Shown here: positions 7,031 through 58,281 of the stretch, piece by piece
How the letters are laid out: every line of letters starts with the position of its first letter
Position numbering within the stretch: the stretch's first letter is position 1
Origin: an uncultured Candidatus Saccharibacteria bacterium
Lineage (GTDB): Bacteria; Patescibacteriota; Minisyncoccia; Phycocordibacterales; PALSA-1337
Reading direction: 5' to 3'
NCBI GenBank assembly: GCA_964412585.1
Contig: CAYPPJ010000001.1
Span: forward strand, 84,151 to 148,150
Length of the DNA stretch: 64,000 nt
Translations under genes and position numbers: made by a program
The notes under the pieces: model-generated
Database searches by the model: none
What the model was told of the DNA's origin: nothing
What the model saw: the letters and a program-made list of their open reading frames with translations, nothing else

Positions 7031-10000
7031 CTACACGACGACAATATTCACGAGTTTATTTGGTACAACAATAATCTTCTTCACTTCCTTCCCTTCTATC
7101 CACTTCAGGGCCTCAGGAATGGCCTTGGCACGGTTCTCAAGTTCCTCCTGTGATGAATCTGTAGGAACTGTGAATGAGCCACGCATTTTGCCATTTATTT
7201 GGACGATAATAGTGACCTCATCATCGGCTGCTAGAGTAGCATCATAGACTGGCCATGGTGCACAATTGATAGATTTCTTATTACCAAGTGATGCCCACAA
7301 TTCTTCAGTAACATGTGGTGCAAAAGGTGCGAGCAACTGGAGCAATACGCCATATTGCTCGCAATCGATAACCTGTACCTTCTCAAGTTCGTTTACAGTG
7401 ATCATAAGGGTGCTTATTGCTGTGTTGAAACGCATAGCTTCGATATCATCACTTACTTTTTTGATCGCTTTATGAATAATCTTATTCACCAGTATAACAT
7501 CACCGACTTTTTCATCGGTTTGAGCAACTACTTTTTCACGTAATTTCCACACACGTTCAATAAATCTGCGTACGCCTGCAATGTTATTTGTATCCCAGGC
7601 AATCGGCTGATCAAATGGTCCCATAAACATCTCATAGAGACGCAGCGAATCGGCTCCGACAGTGGCTACTATGCTGTCAGGATTGATCACATTGCCTTTT
7701 GACTTCGACATTTTGACTCCGCCTTCAGCCAAAATAAGTCCATGAGAGGTGCGCTTGGTATATGGCTCATCGGTCGGCACCAATCCGAGATCAAAAAGGA
7801 ACTTGTGCCAGAAGCGTGAATAGAGCAAATGCAATGTCGTGTGCTCCATGCCGCCGTTATACCAATCAACGGGAGTCCAATAGTCGAGATTCTTTTTGTC
7901 AGCAAATACTTTTTTGTTTTTAGGATCTACATAGCGCAAATAATACCAACTCGAGCCCGCCCAGTTTGGCATGGTATCAGTCTCACGCTGTGCTGGTCCC
8001 TTACATTGAGGACACTTTGTATTTACCCATGCAGTAATCGCTGCCAAAGGAGATTCGCCCGTTTCGGTTGGCTTGTAGTTTTTGACTGAAGGTAATTTGA
8101 TCGGCAAATCCTTTTCGGGTACCGGAACAAGGCCACACTTCTGACAGTTAACAACTGGTATTGGCTCACCCCAATAGCGCTGACGTGAGAAAATCCAATC
8201 GCGGAGTTTGAATGTGGTGATCCACTTTCCACCGACTGATTCGGTAATCTCTTTTTTGACCAATGACGACTCCTTACCACTGAATGATCCGGAATTTTCC
8301 AATATACCGTCACCAACAAAAGATGCGTCCGGCGAAACAAAGCGCTGCCAGAATGCCCAATCAGTGATTTTTGGATACAGAGCAGTCGGAATATCTTTTC
8401 GTGCTACCCACGAAATCTGCTGATGGTTGGACTCATGCTCAGCAACAGGTTGTTGTGCGCCGCTCTTCAACTCAAAATAATATCCATCCAACATGGCTGA
8501 ACGATTTTCATTTTTGTGTGGCGCAAAATGTTTTGCGTAGACATGACCGCCGAGTTTTTTCACCAACACAAAATCGGTAAATCCAGTCTCCTCTATAATC
8601 TCACGCTTTGCAGCCTCAACAGGATCTTCACCTGGATCAATGCCTCCAATGACAAAGGTCGTCCACCCATGTTTCGGCGCTTTGAGACAGAGGAATTCGT
8701 CCTTTTCCCAGTGCTTAACAATAGCTAGGATGCATTCACGTGCCACAGTCTTCACCCCAGGCCTCGATGCAAAATCACCTTGAGTGACATTGATAAGTGG
8801 TGCAACCACTTCTCGTACTGGTAATCCATATTTTTTTGCAAACATACCATCACGCTCATCATGTGCAGGAACAGCCATAACTGCGCCTTTACCATAATCT
8901 GCCAAGACGTAGTCAGCTATCCACACAGGAACTTCTTCCTTTTTTGCCGGGTTAATTGCTTTTACACCTTTTAACTCTACTCCTGTTTTTTCTTTTGTCG
9001 CATCTGTGCGTTCCATTTCTGATTCTTTTTTGACCTTGGCAATGTATAATTCAACCTCAGATTTATTTTCTACAACTGAAAGAAGCTCTTTAACCAGAGT
9101 ATGTTCAGGTGCAAGCACAACATAGGTCACACCAAAAAGAGTATCGGGACGGGTCGTGAAGACTTTAATCCTACGCGAACCAACCATACGAGGAACGAAC
9201 GTATCCTTGAGGAGCTCCTCAGTTTTTTTGTATCTCAAACTCTCATCTTGTTCTACCTTAAACTGTCCGGTCTCAACATATTTCAACAGCGACTCCATCG
9301 GGTACCCAGGTTGCGATTTTTCGGATCGTTCAGTTTGCAGATAATATTCATACGGTGATTGTTCAGCCGAAATTGTGCCTTTCTCATCAGTAAATGCAAG
9401 ACCGTAAATAAATTTAGCCTTTGAGGCACCTCCGACACCTTTCAAAAACTTGAGTGTGTATTCAATAACCTCTTCATCAGTAGCGCGACCACTCTTTGGA
9501 TTTGCTAATTTTCGAATATGATGAATAACACCACCATCTGTTGGCCACTTTTCAACCCAAAACACATGATCAGTTGAAATAGTTGGAATACCTGTCTTTT
9601 TGAAATAATATTCCGACTTCAATCGAGCATTCGCGAGATGATCATTACCTTCAACCAAATCAGAATCATCCAACGGCGGAAGATCATTTAGCGAAATGAG
9701 TTCCAATTGACTCACATCCTTGAGACAGGTCTTGACCATCATTATTTTTGCTTCGTTTCTCGTTCCAATAAGAACCCGTCGCTTCTGGACATCAGACTTA
9801 ATGGAAAATTCAAGTTCAGCCCCCTCACTCTTCCCTATCCAATTTCGCTGCTGCTCCTTGATCGCGTCCTTCCAATCCAACAAAGGTTTACCAAATGACT
9901 CAGCGGTGATAGCCGGATTCAGAAACTTTGCCCACACGTATCTCTGTGAATCAGGCGAGACAAAGGCAGTCATTTCTTCTTTTGAGAGCCACACCACCTC

Positions 10001-11089
10001 ATGGTTGGCCTGCTCTTCAGCGGTAATCTCATTTCGATCACCATTTTGTAATTCGAAATAGAGCGCATCAAAATGTGCATAACGATTTACATTTTTTGGC
10101 ACATGGAAAAACTTGGCATCAACTTTTCCGAGAGCACGAATAAACGCAGGATTTTTATATCCGGTCTCTTCGACAATCTCTGCAATCGCTGCTTCTTCGG
10201 GAGTCTGCTTCCCTTCGACCCCACCTGTGATAAGCGTCTGCCAATCTACCTTCTTCCATTTGAGACCAATATATTTATCCTCTGACCAATGCTTCACAAT
10301 CGCGACAATAGCTTTGCGCTCAACAAAAGGAAGCTCGTGTCTGACTGCACCAGGCTCTGTCGTCTGCGTAAAACAAGGCACATCATCAGTACCTTCGAGA
10401 ATGTCTCCTTTTGGCGTTACCCGTGCATTCAGACTATTCAATAGTCGATCAGCATATTTCGTAATAGCCAGCATCCATTGCTCTTTCTCTCGCTTTTCGA
10501 CTGGCGTACCGCAACGTTCACATTTTCCATCGATAACCTCTTCGTTGGCGAGACCGATCAGGTCTTTTGGACACCAATTGATGGTCATCTTCTTTTTGTA
10601 CGCCAGTCCTTTTTTGAAAAATTGAAGGAAAATCCACTGCGTCCACTTGTAATAAGCAGGATCTGTGGTGTTTATCTCCCTCGACCAATCAAATGAAATA
10701 CCGATAGACTGAATTTGCTTTCGAAATGTATCGGAGTTTTTCTTTGTTACAACACGTGGGTCCTGACCAGTCTTAATAGCATAGTTCTCTGTAGGCAATC
10801 CGAAGGCATCCCATCCAATCGGATACAAGACATTGTAACCCTGCGCGCGACGTTTGCGAGCAATAACATCCATAGCAATATATGGACGCGGATGTCCCAC
10901 ATGCAACCCGTCCCCAGATGGATACGGAAATTCAATGAGACCGTAGAATTTTTTCTTCGTTGAATCTTCTTTTACTTGATAGAGTTTCTTTTTCTCCCAA
11001 TATTTTTGCCACTTCGGCTCAATCTTTGTGTGGTCGTATGCACCGATGGTAGAAGCCATTTTTGTCGCTTTTGCTGAAGCTTTTATCAT
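7031..11089 (-). CDS. leuS: Leucyl-tRNA synthetase carrying three large insertions (two NUDIX-like, one Ham1/ITPase-like)
   Basis: HIGH motif HVGH, editing-domain signature TTRPDTLFG, KMSKS motif VKMSKS and the RDWIFSRQRYWGEPIP stretch are all present. The protein is 1352 aa, against a typical length near 860. Alternative start at 11059 (MASTIG...). Confidence 0.9.
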   Translation of the reverse strand: MIKASAKATKMASTIGAYDHTKIEPKWQKYWEKKKLYQVKEDSTKKKFYGLIEFPYPSGDGLHVGHPRPYIAMDVIARKRRAQGYNVLYPIGWDAFGLPTENYAIKTGQDPRVVTKKNSDTFRKQIQSIGISFDWSREINTTDPAYYKWTQWIFLQFFKKGLAYKKKMTINWCPKDLIGLANEEVIDGKCERCGTPVEKREKEQWMLAITKYADRLLNSLNARVTPKGDILEGTDDVPCFTQTTEPGAVRHELPFVERKAIVAIVKHWSEDKYIGLKWKKVDWQTLITGGVEGKQTPEEAAIAEIVEETGYKNPAFIRALGKVDAKFFHVPKNVNRYAHFDALYFELQNGDRNEITAEEQANHEVVWLSKEEMTAFVSPDSQRYVWAKFLNPAITAESFGKPLLDWKDAIKEQQRNWIGKSEGAELEFSIKSDVQKRRVLIGTRNEAKIMMVKTCLKDVSQLELISLNDLPPLDDSDLVEGNDHLANARLKSEYYFKKTGIPTISTDHVFWVEKWPTDGGVIHHIRKLANPKSGRATDEEVIEYTLKFLKGVGGASKAKFIYGLAFTDEKGTISAEQSPYEYYLQTERSEKSQPGYPMESLLKYVETGQFKVEQDESLRYKKTEELLKDTFVPRMVGSRRIKVFTTRPDTLFGVTYVVLAPEHTLVKELLSVVENKSEVELYIAKVKKESEMERTDATKEKTGVELKGVKAINPAKKEEVPVWIADYVLADYGKGAVMAVPAHDERDGMFAKKYGLPVREVVAPLINVTQGDFASRPGVKTVARECILAIVKHWEKDEFLCLKAPKHGWTTFVIGGIDPGEDPVEAAKREIIEETGFTDFVLVKKLGGHVYAKHFAPHKNENRSAMLDGYYFELKSGAQQPVAEHESNHQQISWVARKDIPTALYPKITDWAFWQRFVSPDASFVGDGILENSGSFSGKESSLVKKEITESVGGKWITTFKLRDWIFSRQRYWGEPIPVVNCQKCGLVPVPEKDLPIKLPSVKNYKPTETGESPLAAITAWVNTKCPQCKGPAQRETDTMPNWAGSSWYYLRYVDPKNKKVFADKKNLDYWTPVDWYNGGMEHTTLHLLYSRFWHKFLFDLGLVPTDEPYTKRTSHGLILAEGGVKMSKSKGNVINPDSIVATVGADSLRLYEMFMGPFDQPIAWDTNNIAGVRRFIERVWKLREKVVAQTDEKVGDVILVNKIIHKAIKKVSDDIEAMRFNTAISTLMITVNELEKVQVIDCEQYGVLLQLLAPFAPHVTEELWASLGNKKSINCAPWPVYDATLAADDEVTIIVQINGKMRGSFTVPTDSSQEELENRAKAIPEALKWIEGKEVKKIIVVPNKLVNIVVV

Positions 11090-11117
11090 AGGTCAAATAA
11101 TAGCTCAAAAAACCTTT

Positions 11118-11154
11118 ATTTACAAAAAATCGCCACCTGCCTTACGGCAGATGG
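11118..11154 (-). terminator. Candidate intrinsic terminator on the minus strand
   Basis: CCATCTGCC-gtaa-GGCAGGTGG, read on the minus strand, is followed by GATTTTTTGTAAAT. It lies downstream of the small-peptide pair and upstream of leuS. Confidence 0.45.
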
Positions 11155-11394
11155 CAACTGACATCTGATGAAACTACGGTGCACTGGGAGGCAGATCATT
11201 TGACTGCTTGAACGCTCGTCGCACTGACGCGAGAAAACTCTCGGCGGTACGCGGCGTACTTCCAGGTGCCATGTCACTGCGAGTGGCGTGGGACTGGAAC
11301 GACAGGAACCGCGTAAAACTCATGGGTTGTGAGGAGAAGCCGGAGCGGCTCTGCCCCATTTTTTTTCGCGTAATAGGTGTAAAGATCATATTTG

Positions 11395-11559
11395 TTAATG
11401 GGTGTAGTAGGCGTACCAGTAGTAGCAGAGCCCAGTGGCCAACACTGCACAAACAATCACTACACCTAGAACCCAGCGTCCTTGGCGAGCAAACGTGTTG
11501 TTTTCATCGAGTGTTGATGGCGCTCGATCCCAAAAAGGGTGAAGGGGTATCTTGTTCAT
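11395..11559 (-). CDS. Small predicted membrane peptide (54 aa), second gene of a two-peptide module
   Basis: MNKIPLHPFWDRAPSTLDENNTFARQGRWVLGVVIVCAVLATGLCYYWYAYYTH. It has one TM helix. Its ATG sits 1 nt after the stop of the upstream peptide. Local GC is above the window average. It is below the 60-aa cutoff of the supplied ORF track. Confidence 0.35.
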   Translation of the reverse strand: MNKIPLHPFWDRAPSTLDENNTFARQGRWVLGVVIVCAVLATGLCYYWYAYYTH

Positions 11560-11560
11560 A

Positions 11561-11707
11561 TCACGCCTTCCGGCACGACGAGGTGACTTGATTATCCGGC
11601 AGCAAGAATGCGAACATCACAACTGCTGTTAAACAGACAGCGAGCAGTACGCATCCGAGCGCGACTTTCACTCCAATCAATGATAGTACTCCGACACTAC
11701 TTGTCAT
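11561..11707 (-). CDS. Small predicted membrane peptide (48 aa) with a strong Shine-Dalgarno
   Basis: MTSSVGVLSLIGVKVALGCVLLAVCLTAVVMFAFLLPDNQVTSSCRKA. GGAGGA lies 4 nt upstream of the ATG. A terminator lies about 240 nt downstream on the same strand. Confidence 0.35.
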   Translation of the reverse strand: MTSSVGVLSLIGVKVALGCVLLAVCLTAVVMFAFLLPDNQVTSSCRKA

Positions 11708-11818
11708 GAATCCTCCAGGGTTTGACTGAGTTTAATGTTGAAAAACCAATGGAATACACGCCCTACGACAACGTACATTCCGCCGAGATTTATAGCATAT
11801 TTAGGTTGTACTGGGAAG

Positions 11819-12916
11819 TTAGATTTTAAACTCCATCACATCCCCATCTTTGACAATATATTCCTTCCCTTCAGTCCTCAAAAGTCCCTTTTCGCGAGCG
11901 GCACCAAATGAGCCCGACTCGATCAGTTTGTCCCACTCGATAACTTCTGCACGAATAAATTTATCCTTGAAATCACCATGAATAGCTGTACCTGCTTCTG
12001 GTGCAGTCCAGCCACGATGAATAGTCCAAGCACGAGTTTCTTTTTCTCCGGTCGTAAAATAAGTAATCAGATTGAGCAATTCGTACCCTTTTTTGATGAG
12101 GTCATCAATACCATCCTCCTTGGCACCGAGTCCTTCGCGAAGCTCCTGTTTCTCTTTGTCATCAATATCTTTGAGCTCGTGTTCAATGCCCGCGTCCACA
12201 ATGACCCACTTTGCACCGTTCTCTTTGAAGAATGCAATGAGTTTCTGATAACGTTCATCATTCAGTTCATCAAGATTTTTGCCGCCTGATTTTTTATTCA
12301 ACACATACATGAATGGCTTTGAGGTAAGCAGGTGGAGCGACTTTACGAAAGGAGCTTCAAATTCATCAGGAACGACTGTTGATGCTAACTTCCCTGCCTT
12401 GAGTGCGACCAAAATCTTTTCAACGAGGCCATTTTCGAGGATAGCTTCCTTTTTGCCCGACTTTACTTCTTTGGCCAAACTTCCGTGACGCTTGGTGACT
12501 GTCTGGAGATCAGCAAGAATAAGTTCGAGGTTGATAACTTCAATATCTTTGAGAGGATTGATCTTTCCATCAACGTGAATAATGTTGTCATCTTCAAAAA
12601 TGCGAACGACTTCTGCGATAGCGTCCGTTTCACGAATGTTTGTGAGAAATTGGTTGCCGAGTCCCTCACCATCTGAAGCACCTTTCACCAGGCCGGCAAT
12701 ATCCACGAACTCAACCACCGCAGGAACTGTCTTTTGAGTTTTAGAAAATTCAGAGAGTTTCCAGAGACGTTCGTCAGGCACCGCAACAACGCCGACAGAC
12801 GGGTCAATGGTCGCAAAGGGATAGTTTGCAACAAGAACGCTCTTTCGAGTCAGAGCGTTGAAAAGTGTTGATTTGCCGACGTTTGGGAGGCCGACGATGC
12901 CGATGGAGAGAGACAT
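11819..12916 (-). CDS. ychF: Ribosome-binding ATPase YchF (Obg-family GTPase/ATPase)
   Basis: G1 motif GLPNVGKST follows the N-terminus [25 protein letters not shown]-terminal TGS-like domain is present. Confidence 0.9.
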
Positions 12917-13051
12917 GGGTAGAAATATAGCCTATTTATTGAATTTTAGGAAATTCTAATAAGCCCATACGCCCAAGGTTGACAGAAGTTATTTCTAATG
13001 TTAAATATTACTTAATGAAAGGATTGGTTCCTTGCCAATAATTGTTGACGT

Positions 13052-13459
13052 ATGAGCCCTCAAACAAAAGCGATCCTTGCCGGTTTTTTCTTTGGACTGT
13101 ATCCACTGATACTCAAGCACAGCAAGCTCAGTGGTAACATGACCTCTCTCCTGTTCACCTTCGCTGTCTTTACGGTCATTGTCCCTTTCGCATGGAAGGA
13201 ACTGACCACGATCCAGCAGACATTCTGGCCTGCCATCATCGGCGCAGGGATAGCAAGTGGTTTTGGCATGCTCTGCATGACGAGCATGCTGGCACAAACA
13301 CCACAGGAACGAATTGGCATGCTCATCCTGGCCATGATCGTGACACAGAGCGTCGTCACGGTGATATTCCAAATCGTGATTGATAAGGGAATCACTTTAA
13401 CCAAAGTTATTGGTTTTGTGTGTGCCGGCGTTGCGATCGTTCTGCTCAACAAGAAATGA
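13052..13459 (+). CDS. Small multi-TM membrane protein (EamA/SMR-like, 4 TM)
   Basis: 135-aa hydrophobic ORF with four predicted helices. I prefer it to the overlapping minus-strand ORFs because its hydropathy is coherent and a terminator follows it. Confidence 0.5.
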   Translation: MSPQTKAILAGFFFGLYPLILKHSKLSGNMTSLLFTFAVFTVIVPFAWKELTTIQQTFWPAIIGAGIASGFGMLCMTSMLAQTPQERIGMLILAMIVTQSVVTVIFQIVIDKGITLTKVIGFVCAGVAIVLLNKK

Positions 13460-13529
13460 TTTCGTTATTTGGCTCCCACGAAAGACCACGCGCGGTATTC
13501 AGTTACTCGGTGGCCACATAGTGGACGCC

Positions 13530-13587
13530 CCCATCAGTGAGAACAGCGTACTCCGTTACGCACTCTCGCTGGTGGGATTTTTTATAT
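13530..13587 (+). terminator. Candidate intrinsic terminator
   Basis: A 12-bp stem (CCCATCAGTGAG / CTCGCTGGTGGG, with two G-U pairs) and a 23-nt loop are followed by ATTTTTTATAT. Confidence 0.45.
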
Positions 13588-13630
13588 AAATTTGACAAAA
13601 ACTTATTTTCAATTTCCTTTTTTAAAGTTC

Positions 13631-13658
13631 TTGACGTTTTTAAAAAAAAGAGTAATCT
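13631..13658 (+). promoter_or_regulatory. Sigma-70-type promoter candidate (TTGACG, 16-nt spacer, TAATCT)
   Basis: A near-consensus -35 and a TAnnnT -10 are separated by a 16-nt AT-rich spacer. No protein-coding gene lies downstream on this strand. Confidence 0.45.
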
Positions 13659-13664
13659 CTTGGA

Positions 13665-14184
13665 CAGGTCCGTTCTTTTGAACAACCTTTGGTCCTGTAG
13701 GATTAACGATCCTAGAACCATTGAAGCTCGAAGAGACGCTCGATGATCCGGCCGAAAGGTTGGAGGAGCTGACAGCGGAGCCATTCATAAAGTGACCGTG
13801 GGTTGGTAGTTTTTCAATCCATACTTCACTCGGAGAACCACTCCCTTACACCATGTATACCTGACATGGCGGCTCGCAAGAGCCCTAGAGTCAGACTTCC
13901 ATACACGAAGTAAGCTAAAACAACCAGAAGGTCCTGCAAGGGCTGGAGGTTGAGCGGGAACGATCCGCTATGAGTTACGCATCCAATTGCGTAACAGGAA
14001 CAAACAAGTCCCCGATGAGCTCACAGACATCTTGGAGAGGACCTGGAAAACCTCACTCGATGATGCTCATATCGTAGCAATACGATGACTCTGGAATGGA
14101 ACTGGTCTATCGCATGACTGGTTCGGTACCGGAAACTCTTCACTTTCCCTGGCGTTGCTCTCGAAGCGACGCCTGTTTTTATTT
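13665..14184 (+). ncRNA. Candidate structured non-coding RNA of about 520 nt; identity unresolved
   Basis: No ORF of 60 aa or more occurs on either strand across 13.79-14.15 kb. Perfect hairpins with GNRA loops occur at GGCTC-GCAA-GAGCC (13871-13884) and ATCGTA-GCAA-TACGAT (14071-14086), plus an 8-bp GTTACGCA/TGCGTAAC hairpin (13974-13995). The locus is bounded by an upstream promoter and a downstream terminator. I could not find RNase P, tmRNA or SRP signature motifs. Confidence 0.35.
14151..14184 (+). terminator. Rho-independent terminator
   Basis: GGCGTTGC-tctcgaa-GCGACGCC is followed by TGTTTTTATTT. It overlaps the 3' end of the convergent minus-strand small ORF. Confidence 0.6.
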
Positions 14185-14412
14185 ACCCAAACTTCCCATC
14201 ACCCGTTTCATATCTTCTCCACCTTCCTGCATCACCGCCTTTGCAGCATCCTCCTGACTCATACCAAGCTTCATCTTGGCTTGAATAGACTCTGCCATCT
14301 GTTTGAAGAAATCTGGATTCTTTTCAATCATCTCAAAAATCTTGTTGAGTTCTCCTTCTGGAACCCCTTTCATTTGTCTCTTGATTAAGGCTTTAGTGAA
14401 AAAATTAAGCAT
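14179..14412 (-). CDS. Small charged alpha-helical hypothetical protein (77 aa), last gene of the mrdA-greA-lysS transcription unit
   Basis: Intact ORF MLNFFTKALIKRQMKGVPEGELNKIFEMIEKNPDFFKQMAESIQAKMKLG.... Its composition looks protein-like. The antisense ORF in the same region is low-complexity. Confidence 0.4.
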   Translation of the reverse strand: MLNFFTKALIKRQMKGVPEGELNKIFEMIEKNPDFFKQMAESIQAKMKLGMSQEDAAKAVMQEGGEDMKRVMGSLGK

Positions 14413-14550
14413 GTGAATTGCGTCTATATTCTTCTAATATGGCGAATGGTACAATTAATCTGAGTCGCAGAACCTATACTCCGTCGGTCAAAAGCGAATC
14501 GGGTGATTCGTTGTCGGTACGAGGATGGCAACAACCATCCCCACTTCTTA

Positions 14551-16002
14551 TTATCGAGGCTTCATCAATGGAAACATCTGTGTCTCACGGAGTGGCTTAT
14601 CGATCAAGAATGCAAACAATCTCTCACCAAATCCAAACCCACATGTTGGTGGCATACCATGTTCGAGCATCTCCACGAACTCATGGTCGGGCATCATGGC
14701 TTCGGTATCGCCCTTGTCGATAAGTTTCTGCTGTTCAGCGAAACGGTTTGCCTGATCGATAGGATCATTGAGCTCAGAATAGCCTCGGCCGAGCTCGCTG
14801 CCAGCGATAATGGGCTGGAACATTTGGACGACAGGTTTTCCTACAACACTCTTGGCCAACGGCGCAACAAGAACAGGGTGATTGATGAGAAATGCAGGAC
14901 CAGTGATGTTTTTACGGCAATATTTCCACAAGGTATCAGTCAAACGTTCCCGATTGGTACCGTCATATTTAACCTTGAGACCGTTGAGCTTATTCATCAT
15001 ATCCTTTTCTGATGCTGAAGTGATATCTATGCCCGTTTGTTTCTTTATCTCTTCTGCATAATCAATCTTCACCCATTCATCCGCAAGATCAAAGGTGTGT
15101 CCACGAGTCGTGAACTTTGTGGTGCCAAAAACTTCGGAAGCAATCTTTCGATACATCTCCTGAACAAGCTTCATGCCATCATTGTAGTCAGCATATGACC
15201 AATAGAACTCCATATTGGTGAACTCTTGCGCATGTTCAGGACTGGTGCCTTCATTGCGATAGACACGACCAATCTCAAAGGTCTTTGGAAAACCTCCGGC
15301 CATCAACCTCTTTTGCCACAATTCCCCTACCGAAATACGCAAATAGACATCGAGGTCATAGTCATTATGGTGAGTTTTGAATGGAGTCGCTTCGGCACCA
15401 CCTGTAGTCGTCTCCAGCGTTGGTGTTTCGACTTCCAAAAATCCATTGTCATTCATAAATTGCCTCGTAACGTTCCAAAACTTTGCTTTTTTGAGAAAAA
15501 CATCACGAAGCTCTGGTGTCATAATGAAATCCAAATATCTCTTTCGGAATTTTTCATCAGGATCTGTGATACCATGCCATTTTTCCGGCAATGGTAGCAA
15601 TGACTTTGAAGCCATGGTCCATGATGTCACCAAAATACTCTGTTCACCTCTTTGGGTCGTGAAGCATGTACCTGAGACACTGATAATGTCACCAATATCA
15701 ACGGCGTTCGTGAATAATTCAAATAAATCGGGCTTCAAAATATCCTTCTTTATAACTGCTTGAAAAGTAGCCTTGCCATCATCAAGTACAACAAATGAAA
15801 TGGCGCCCGCACCGCGAATAGCCATAATACGGCCAGCAAGATTAATTACCTTTTGAGACTTTTCGTATTCAGCAAAATGGGCCTTGGCATCCTTGAGACA
15901 GTGGTCGCGAGGGACTTTTGCTGGATATGCTTCCATGCTGGCCTTTTTGAGAAGGTCGATCTTGGCGAGCCTGGTTGCGCGAAGTTCGTCAATTGAAGCC
16001 AT
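14551..16002 (-). CDS. lysS: Lysyl-tRNA synthetase, class II
   Basis: An N-terminal OB anticodon-binding domain is followed by a class II core (motifs 1-3, e.g. FRNEG-like YRNEGTS and GGFGFGERL). Confidence 0.9.
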   Translation of the reverse strand: MASIDELRATRLAKIDLLKKASMEAYPAKVPRDHCLKDAKAHFAEYEKSQKVINLAGRIMAIRGAGAISFVVLDDGKATFQAVIKKDILKPDLFELFTNAVDIGDIISVSGTCFTTQRGEQSILVTSWTMASKSLLPLPEKWHGITDPDEKFRKRYLDFIMTPELRDVFLKKAKFWNVTRQFMNDNGFLEVETPTLETTTGGAEATPFKTHHNDYDLDVYLRISVGELWQKRLMAGGFPKTFEIGRVYRNEGTSPEHAQEFTNMEFYWSYADYNDGMKLVQEMYRKIASEVFGTTKFTTRGHTFDLADEWVKIDYAEEIKKQTGIDITSASEKDMMNKLNGLKVKYDGTNRERLTDTLWKYCRKNITGPAFLINHPVLVAPLAKSVVGKPVVQMFQPIIAGSELGRGYSELNDPIDQANRFAEQQKLIDKGDTEAMMPDHEFVEMLEHGMPPTCGFGFGERLFAFLIDKPLRETQMFPLMKPR

Positions 16003-32342: not shown

Positions 32343-32418
32343 GTACTCATATTCCGCGGTAGCTCAGCCGGTAGAGCGCCTCGCTGTTAACGAGGATGTC
32401 CCAGGTTCGATCCCTGGC
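32343..32418 (+). tRNA. tRNA-Asn (anticodon GTT)
   Basis: Cloverleaf read directly from the sequence. Acceptor arm TCCGCGG/CCGCGGA, D-arm GCTC-AGCCGGTA-GAGC, anticodon arm CCTCG-CTGTTAA-CGAGG, T-arm CCAGG-TTCGATC-CCTGG, discriminator G and an encoded CCA. Confidence 0.9.
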
Positions 32419-32429
32419 CGCGGAGCCAG

Positions 32430-58047: not shown

Positions 58048-58281
58048 TTAATCGAACTTGTCCATCAGACTTTCCTCAGCGCATTGGAGAATCTGATTGT
58101 GAGTCATACTGAGCTTCTGTCGGATTTCCAACTGCTCACGTTCGATATCCCCGTTTTTGCCCAGCTTTGCCTTGAAGGCAAGCTGGGCGTACCGCAGGAC
58201 CAACTGTTTTTGTTCATTGTCCACGGTACACCTCCTTTCGAAGGACATACTCAAAGGCGATGAGAATGGCGAGCTTGCCAT
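58048..58281 (-). CDS. Hypothetical small protein (66-77 aa)
   Basis: Intact ORF in a region of higher GC. It overlaps the 3' end of the upstream gene. Start is ambiguous (58281 or 58248). Confidence 0.4.
   Translation of the reverse strand: MASSPFSSPLSMSFERRCTVDNEQKQLVLRYAQLAFKAKLGKNGDIEREQLEIRQKLSMTHNQILQCAEESLMDKFD

Follow-up and report, generated by a model that had tools for sequence, protein, structure and literature searches.

A probable gene for a large structured RNA of undescribed family beside the LysRS gene of a CPR bacterium

A promoter-to-terminator unit between YchF and LysRS

Positions 13631–14184 of the 64-kb stretch of DNA analysed here (the window) lie between a 135-aa EamA-like gene (13052–13459, +) and the gene for a 77-aa protein, p77 (14179–14412, −), with a YchF gene further upstream (11819–12916, −) and the lysyl-tRNA synthetase gene, LysRS, beyond p77 (14551–16002, −). 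This locus is probably a real structured non-coding RNA gene of an undescribed family, a reading we favour because a conserved promoter and terminator bracket sequence that is non-coding and structurally constrained. LysRS is 90–96% identical to that of Paceibacteria/Taylorbacteria-like metagenome-assembled genomes; the host is therefore a bacterium of the candidate phyla radiation (CPR) with the standard genetic code. p77 adjoins LysRS on the downstream side across the clade and has no Pfam match; the name 'phospholipid N-methyltransferase' that one source (JGI) gives to its homologues seems implausible for a helical protein of 77 aa. Loci of relatives are labelled L with a number, and their RNAs are sorted into three types: type A comprises L003, L004, L005 and L123, type B the window and a ~95-nt piece at the contig end of L015, and type C L111.

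The locus is devoid of credible protein-coding sequence. The original prediction, made from the sequence alone, had reported no open reading frame (ORF) of 60 aa or more at about 13.79–14.15 kb, and a stricter statement holds: none longer than 40 aa lies wholly within 13790–14150 on either strand, and every reading frame of the locus carries at least three stops. The JGI and Logan gene callers predicted no gene in the 720-nt interval from the EamA-like gene to p77, and with small genes accounted for, 13631–14184 is the longest non-coding stretch of the window. A Pfam scan of the ten longest stretches without a stop at the locus returned no match. No conserved protein frame emerged on comparison with relatives, where both indels and substitutions are of a non-coding kind, and a pseudogene or small protein was rejected on reading frames, indels, codon periodicity and Pfam alike; a 53-aa ORF at 14096 meets a stop after 4 codons in L015. 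On the opposite strand, a 93-aa ORF with an ATG start (13503–13784, −) runs antisense to the promoter block and the RNA 5′ end. What looks like peptide conservation in it mirrors the conserved promoter DNA, so that the ORF is probably spurious, though it could be mis-annotated as a gene.

The unit and its boundary elements are as follows.

13585–13637 (+): upstream promoter block ATAAATTTGACAAAAACTTATTTTCAATTTCCTTTTTTAAAGTTCTTGACG, its last bases forming the −35 hexamer, from sequence comparison
13631–13636 (+): −35 hexamer TTGACG, read directly; the same in L003, L004, L005 and L123, and TTGAAA in L111
13653–13658 (+): −10 hexamer TAATCT after a 16-nt spacer, read directly
13665–14184 (+): predicted non-coding RNA of ~520 nt, type B, from the fold, the stops and the alignment with L111
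14151–14184 (+): intrinsic terminator, with a 9-bp stem (14151–14173, 6 G-C pairs) and then TGTTTTTATT

The promoter had been described as near-consensus. Its hexamers and spacer are present as described, but the wording overstates the match, since the −10 hexamer agrees with TATAAT at 3 of 6 positions and a consensus scan left the site unlisted. The promoter is supported despite this weak −10 because all RNA types share its elements and because the block is conserved beyond the third-codon level. At the −10 position type A has TATCTT and L111 has TACCTT, each after a 17-nt spacer, giving TTGA(C/A)(G/A)-N16/17-TA(A/C/T)CTT across all three types. Over the ~50-nt block at 13585–13637, the window is by eye ~80–90% identical to L005, L123 and L003, and less so to L004; LysRS third-codon identity among the same genomes is 0.44–0.61, near saturation. 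A 21-mer of the block occurs only once in the window, and an operator palindrome was rejected, the 21-mer having no match to its own reverse complement within 3 mismatches. Transcription would start near 13664–13666, this position and the RNA ends being predicted from sequence.

The strong intrinsic terminator named in the original prediction is borne out and is the only terminator-like site in 12800–15000. Its U-tract overlaps the stop codon of the convergent p77 gene. In relatives, every occupant of this position has its own G+C hairpin at its end, directly next to a shared TTTTATTT(A/C)CCCA that codes for the p77 end.

A separate conserved non-coding element of ~110 nt lies 3′ of the EamA-like gene (window 13466–13585, +) and ends in a long terminator hairpin. 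It reads ...CGAAAGACCA...CAGUNACUCG..UGGCCRCAUAGUGG..CCACCCAUCAG-(hairpin)-CUGAUGGGAUUUUU and occurs also at L123:2262–2392(−), L115:2800–2940(−) and L165:1342–1482(−), with a variant in L114. In L115 and L165 it stands after an unrelated PadR-like 94-aa ORF, and it therefore travels with different cargo genes of the YchF–p77 segment. It could be a 3′-untranslated-region element, a small RNA or a recombination site.

Predicted fold and its conservation

The window RNA has a + strand minimum free energy (MFE) of −187.4 kcal/mol (z = −5.1 against shuffles), and the − strand gives z = −3.65. As a 554-nt query the locus is 100% identical over its full length in 16 contigs of other samples, and two further contigs from other samples are identical over the portion of the query present. 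The predicted features of the RNA are listed below.

13690–13720 (+): 5′ hairpin, UGGU/ACCA around UAGGAU-UAACG-AUCCUA, conserved with L111
13722–13787 (+): helix P_a, UGAAGCUC (13722–13729) with GAGC..UUCA (13778–13787), with covariation against L111
13730–13735 (+): GAAGAG, complement of CUCUUC at 14136–14141, visible in the sequence; candidate long-range or loop contact
13747–13764 (+): GNRA hairpin 1, UCCGGCC-GAAA-GGUUGGA, read in the sequence
13781–13797 (+): A-rich junction CCAUUCAUAAAGUGACC, collinear with CCAUUCAUGAAAACC (L003), CCAUCGAAAAACC (L004) and CCAUCCAUAAACACC (L111)
13832–13848 (+): hairpin GGAG-AACCA-CUCC with CUUA after it, the positional counterpart of GGAGA-GAAG-UCUCC-CUUA in L111 and all type A RNAs
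13851–13869 (+): hairpin CCAUGU-AUACCUG-ACAUGG, from MFE folds; AUGUGU...ACACAU of L111 is collinear by hand
13871–13884 (+): GNRA hairpin 2, GGCUC-GCAA-GAGCC; AGCC-GUAA-GGCU of L111 is collinear
13974–13995 (+): 8-bp hairpin GTTACGCA-TCCAAT-TGCGTAAC (as RNA, GUUACGCA-UCCAAU-UGCGUAAC), from the sequence and the MFE fold
14071–14086 (+): GNRA hairpin 3, AUCGUA-GCAA-UACGAU, read in the sequence
14091–14098 (+): conserved motif CUGGAAUG, exact in L111, CCGGAAUG in L015, with CAGAUGC at the equivalent place in type A
14099–14124 (+): 9-bp hairpin GAACUGGUC / GACUGGUUC, from comparison with L015
14131–14148 (+): short hairpin GGAAA-CUCUUCAC-UUUCC presenting ACUCUUC, from motif conservation

Conserved structure with compensatory changes holds for the type A RNAs, for the window 5′ domain and for one 3′ hairpin that the window shares with L015. 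The covariation analysis that the original prediction had proposed as a check gave its strongest result in type A, the better-sampled branch. For these four sequences, RNAalifold yields 130 pairs with 89.6% of cells paired; both partners have changed in 41 pairs, where shuffles give 17.2 ± 3.0 (0/500) and slid controls 2–8, and shuffling the alignment columns gives z = −13.4. The RNAs are mutually 0.71–0.83 identical, whereas LysRS third positions stand at 0.47–0.56; identity above this saturated background indicates purifying selection. Indels are not multiples of three in 7/7, 13/14 and 12/14 cases, and the substitutions have no codon periodicity.

The window RNA has a full-length relative in L111 at ~48% identity. 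With its filters off, nhmmer returned reciprocal, collinear and full-length matches between the two (E = 4e-4 in 64 kb; 0.007 and 0.019 in 975 kb). The first 200 columns of their alignment have a conserved fold, with a shuffle z of −5.2. Within them, the inner stem of the 5′ hairpin differs by three double changes (UAGGA/UCCUA in the window, CAAGG/CCUUG in L111), and helix P_a, which encloses GAAGAG and the first GNRA arm, by three compensatory changes (UGGAGUCC / GGAC..UCCA in L111). Towards the 3′ end, the 9-bp hairpin at 14099–14124 keeps all its pairs in L015, where two of them have changed on both sides and one has gone from G-C to G-U, and the GGAAUG of the preceding CUGGAAUG motif is identical there. 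The window, L015, L004 and L123 share ACTCTTC letter for letter, L111 has TCTCTTC, and in each the motif stands within about 30 nt upstream of the terminator. The equivalents of GAAGAG and CUCUUC are GGUGAAGAG and CUCUUCGUU in L111 and GAGAG and CUCUU in L004; both sides are conserved and so do not covary, and their pairing is a candidate contact.

All three hairpins quoted in the original prediction are present, and there is an additional GNRA hairpin, TCCGGCC-GAAA-GGTTGGA, at 13747–13764. The sense strand of the window RNA thus carries three GNRA-capped stems of at least 4 bp, where dinucleotide shuffles give 0.35 (P = 0.009); the antisense strand has none, and across family members the counts are 2–3 on the sense strand and 0–1 on the antisense strand. 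A GNRA-capped hairpin 90–108 nt from the predicted start is common to the window and all four type A RNAs. The enrichment is real but modest, and to take it as a hallmark of RNase P- or intron-scale RNAs was an over-reading.

Might the locus instead be spacer without function, or the remains of a decayed cassette in a variable slot, with a stable fold by chance? Slot content does vary between related species, the window body is ~48% identical to L111 and so near the saturated synonymous level, and the antisense strand, too, folds better than shuffles (z = −3.65). Set against this are a promoter block and a TA-N-CTT −10 element conserved far beyond the neutral level, a dedicated terminator, the conserved 5′ domain fold (z = −5.2), and the covariation and above-background identity of type A. 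There is also no trace of a reading frame and no Pfam domain, and GNRA hairpins are enriched on one strand only. We regard chance folding of spacer as distinctly unlikely.

The three types are connected by evidence of differing kinds. The link from B to C has statistical support in the nhmmer and fold comparisons of sequence given above. From C to A, L111 contains at a collinear position the exact 15-mer GGAGAGAAGTCTCCC, a hairpin found in all type A RNAs; by chance, ~5e-7 occurrences of any one 15-mer would be expected in 535 nt. R1, a covariance model built on the J2-Hc-Hd-He module of type A, has its best non-self match at the right place in L111, though weakly (13.8 bits, E = 0.47); in a scan of 95 other loci it found no further copies. 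Types A and B share the promoter block, slot, strand, length and terminator arrangement, together with ACTCTTC ahead of the terminator, the GNRA hairpin 90–108 nt from the start, and a collinear order of CAUUGAA, the A-rich junction, the GGAG...CUCC hairpin and then CUUA. A common origin of A and B is likely on these grounds. A reading of the locus as hypervariable under diversifying selection is weakened by the saturation of synonymous sites between these genomes.

Several points weigh against the window locus being such an RNA gene. Conservation and covariation, whose lack had been named as grounds for refutation, hold in type A, the window 5′ domain and the 3′ hairpin shared with L015; in the central 240 nt and the 3′ part, where window and L111 align poorly, their alignment gives no significant fold signal (z = −1.3 and −0.1). 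The window form has one full-length divergent homologue, L111, and the ~95-nt piece of L015, and most of its helices are without comparative support; the 8-bp hairpin at 13974–13995 is an example, lying in the central region that aligns unreliably with L111 (z = −1.3). The 100% pairing of window and L111 arises partly by construction, as RNAalifold on two sequences keeps mutually compatible pairs only, and the shuffle z is the fairer measure. R1 fails to detect the window RNA, and the structural equivalence of types A and B is not demonstrated. The family was found in seven lineages, all within one narrow clade, and always next to LysRS and p77, the place at which the search was anchored. Finally, the RNA, with its start site and ends, is a prediction.

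A variable slot in related species

The YchF–p77 segment (window 12917–14178) is a variable slot among related species. It could be read in 22 relatives, 15 of which hold other content or nothing. The slot is empty in L002 and L083, and L006 is without both p77 and the RNA; L081 has two protein genes, one for a NYN-domain protein; small ORFs fill it in L009, L084/L085, L107, L110, L114, L119 and L165. L115/L116 carry the same PadR-like small-ORF cassette as L165, the short contig end of L001 resembles L110, and L164 is also without the RNA. The cargo types seen are thus an EamA half-transporter, NYN, PadR-like and small membrane proteins. Several relatives hold other cargo or nothing in the slot, and judged by this locus the RNA appears dispensable.

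An ORF-poor unit of 0.5–0.7 kb stands in this slot, on the same relative strand, in L003, L004, L005, L123 and L111. Homologues were sought by a metagenome scan with p77, which gave 6 loci only, and exact-protein look-ups added L111/L117 and L123. Besides the window, six related lineages carry the unit (L003, L004, L005, L123, L111 and, in part, L015). L123 also has the EamA gene and shares it and the promoter block with the window, yet its RNA body differs. In L111 the RNA lies directly downstream of a 242-aa gene, and identical copies occur in L112, L113, L117 and L118.

This arrangement bears on two further accounts of the locus. By the first, the sequence would act in cis, either as a convergent transcript controlling read-through from LysRS and p77 by antisense or interference, or as a long 3′ untranslated region of an upstream cargo gene. 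The overlap of the terminator U-tract with the p77 stop codon is compatible with such a role, as is the fact that on the − strand the hairpin has no T-run, so that LysRS–p77 transcripts may enter the antisense of the RNA; the position of the L111 RNA directly after the 242-aa gene would suit an untranslated region. However, the EamA-like gene has its own conserved terminator element ahead of the RNA promoter, and L003, L004 and L005 have no upstream gene on the same strand. An antisense role needs no 0.5 kb of covarying helices and GNRA loops, and most relatives have p77 without the RNA. We consider a cis role very unlikely.

The second account keeps a structured RNA gene and differs from our reading in function only: the RNA would be an accessory of mobile or defence cargo, for instance a decoy, an abortive-infection trigger or an ornate RNA of phage-like kind, and its patchiness and divergent 'alleles' would reflect horizontal replacement or diversifying selection. 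Assorted accessory cargo in the slot fits this, as do the differing RNA bodies of the window and L123 beside the EamA gene and promoter block they share, and ROOL and GOLLD have a similarly patchy distribution. Yet no integrase, transposase, flanking repeat or phage gene is present at the slot, the RNA has no similarity to phage records or viral contigs, and with synonymous sites saturated, the divergence between types needs no special mechanism. Such a function is unlikely.

Three observations concern the wider neighbourhood. Upstream of YchF, a 1352-aa ORF (7031–11089, −) has leucyl-tRNA-synthetase-type domains and a NUDIX domain (tRNA-synt_1, tRNA-synt_1_2, Anticodon_1 and NUDIX, by the Pfam list for the identical L097 gene), an unusual aminoacyl-tRNA synthetase–NUDIX fusion or insertion. 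L098 and L100 are identical to L097 and the window in YchF, EamA, the RNA and p77, yet differ just past YchF (~11100–11800), where they carry an AAA_24-domain gene and two small genes in place of the LeuRS–NUDIX gene of L097 and the window; this points to an insertion at strain level, perhaps from a phage. L082, a more distant relative whose p77 is 69% identical, has a 16S rRNA gene starting right past p77 on the opposite strand (L082:3226–4000), the start being recognised by eye from the conserved 5′ sequence.

Known RNA families and a candidate mode of action

With all 4227 families of Rfam 15 at the gathering score, no family matches 13631–14184 of the window; the families that had been singled out for checking (RNase P, tmRNA, introns, OLE, ROOL, GOLLD, HEARO and raiA) are among these. 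In E-value mode, again with 4227 families, there was no match at E ≤ 10 for the 1-kb window locus and L004, or at E ≤ 1 for L111, L123, L005 and L003, although a search at E ≤ 10 shows nothing below ~17–20 bits and weaker RNase P matches would stay hidden. The sole RNA in the window recognised by Rfam and ARAGORN is tRNA-Asn (GTT), at 32353–32428 (+).

The hidden range of scores matters for the suggestion, made in the original prediction, that the RNA is a divergent housekeeping species (RNase P, tmRNA or signal recognition particle RNA). RNase P RNA below Rfam thresholds is the most plausible form of this account in a CPR genome: in 10 of 35 circular CPR genomes RNase P RNA was not detected until RF00010 was run at ≥5 bits, and missing helices are also reported (Lui et al. 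2021, PMC8172020). The Rfam scan of the 64 kb finds no rnpB elsewhere in the window, in agreement with the earlier remark that it has no other candidate, and both size and GNRA loops would fit. The type A and C element GGAGAGAAGUCUCC even bears a superficial resemblance to the conserved region CR-I (GGAGGAAAGUCCGG). None of the six loci searched has an Rfam match, however, and neither CR-I (GAGGAAAGUCCGG) nor CR-V (ACAGAANNCGGCUUA) is found within 3 mismatches in 13660–14184. The earlier failure to find P4 is likewise repeated: no P4 pairing with a bulged U could be drawn by hand, and a hand check on L004 revealed no GGAG-CUU partner with which GGAGAGAAGUCUCC of types A and C could form P4.

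The window counterpart of GGAGAGAAGUCUCC is GGAG-AACCA-CUCC, in which 'AAGUC' is lost and the stem kept. Since the stem shared with L111 and type A is retained while the loop is replaced, the element fits a hairpin and not CR-I of RNase P. The types share almost no sequence despite LysRS that is ~90% identical, where a catalytic core would drift more slowly. Judged by the syntenic slot only, the unit is absent from many relatives (15 of 22), the slot being empty or otherwise filled in L002, L006, L081, L083, L107, L110, L114 and L119. RNase P RNA, or another divergent housekeeping RNA, is thus highly improbable here.

Other candidates were tried and rejected. ARAGORN finds only tRNA-Asn and Rfam no tmRNA; the original prediction had likewise found no tmRNA acceptor or ends. 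A CR-I-like match with 2 mismatches at 58065–58077 lies inside coding sequence, with no RNase P model match there. Group I and II introns have no Rfam match, and the unit stands between a promoter and a terminator, not within a gene. A sponge of the CsrB/RsmZ type was dismissed on GGA counts (z = −0.5 to 1.8 against dinucleotide shuffles in six members), and ROOL, GOLLD, OLE, HEARO and raiA for want of a covariance-model match. A phage or viral origin was also discarded: GGAGAGAAGTCTCCC occurs in 40 viral contigs without extended similarity, which we attribute to chance, and blastn against phage records gave no match. Full-text searches of the literature on structured and large non-coding RNAs in Patescibacteria/CPR, and a broader one on novel large structured RNAs, turned up no such class. 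The claim of a promoter-to-terminator unit encoding a structured RNA of undescribed class is upheld by covariation, above-neutral conservation, a non-coding pattern and the lack of an Rfam match, and the family is most likely lineage-restricted to Paceibacteria and absent from Rfam 15.

If so, a sigma-70-type promoter with its conserved upstream block would drive + strand transcription from ~13665, and the intrinsic terminator would stop the transcript at 14184, where the p77 gene converges on it from the opposite strand. The 5′ domain would consist of the hairpin at 13690–13720 and helix P_a enclosing a GNRA-capped arm. The A-rich junction, the GGAG/CUCC hairpin and a variable run of hairpins, two of them GNRA-capped, would follow, and the putative 3′ domain would comprise CUGGAAUG, the 9-bp hairpin and the loop presenting ACUCUUC. 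GAAGAG (13730–13735) may contact CUCUUC (14136–14141) and so close the molecule, and the GNRA loops may dock into helical receptors as tertiary contacts. By analogy with OLE, ROOL and raiA-type RNAs, the molecule could act in trans as a folded scaffold or ribonucleoprotein (RNP) component and not by antisense pairing. Given a real RNA gene, we put a scaffold-like mode of action at roughly even odds; it is an argument by analogy, and no partner protein, target or ligand is indicated, which counts against this part of the proposal.

Large, highly structured bacterial RNAs are rare, and the ones whose function has been solved have, time and again, proved to be ribozymes, RNP machines or assemblies of an unexpected kind. 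CPR genomes are minimal, so 0.5 kb of conserved non-coding sequence is costly. In our view a new family of large CPR RNAs is credible here, and its better-sampled branch, type A, covaries strongly. As a compact candidate for study it has well-defined transcription signals at both ends and this type A covariation, and its natural 'alleles' lend themselves to structure–function work, within the limits of a narrow clade, a thinly sampled window form and no functional lead. Adding the family to RNA-family libraries would stop spurious ORF calls such as the 93-aa antisense ORF at 13503–13784.

Among known systems, RNase P RNA of type A (RF00010), including its CPR forms (PMC8172020), is also an RNA of several hundred nucleotides with GNRA-capped helices in CPR genomes, and has a purine-rich 5′ segment complementary to a 3′-proximal one. 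The window RNA differs in having no CR-I, CR-V, P4 or covariance-model match, in a locus that lacks the unit in many relatives, and in a core that varies by type.

A second comparison is with fast-evolving RNAs. 6S RNA and telomerase RNA conserve their architecture with little sequence identity. In the present family, too, the promoter, the ends and a few motifs and helices are kept while primary sequence is near-random between related species; those RNAs, by contrast, are near-universal in their clades and have known protein partners, whereas here presence is variable and no partner is indicated.

OLE, ROOL, GOLLD, raiA and ModT form a third group for comparison. The window family differs from them in having no covariance-model match, in its CPR host and in not standing beside tRNA or phage genes; it has no associated protein genes, unlike OLE with OapA/B/C, and its sequence diverges much faster between related species than that of OLE, ROOL, GOLLD or raiA. 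In common with them it has the 0.5–0.6 kb size class, many helices with several GNRA tetraloops, a stand-alone promoter–terminator unit, a patchy and lineage-restricted distribution and no obvious mRNA target. We would give an even chance to the fuller proposal that these loci define an undescribed, Paceibacteria-specific class of tertiary-structured RNAs of ~0.5–0.6 kb, with a conserved 5′ core and promoter and at least three barely alignable bodies, which might be a CPR counterpart of OLE or ROOL and could serve, as a ribozyme or RNP scaffold, in the episymbiotic way of life.

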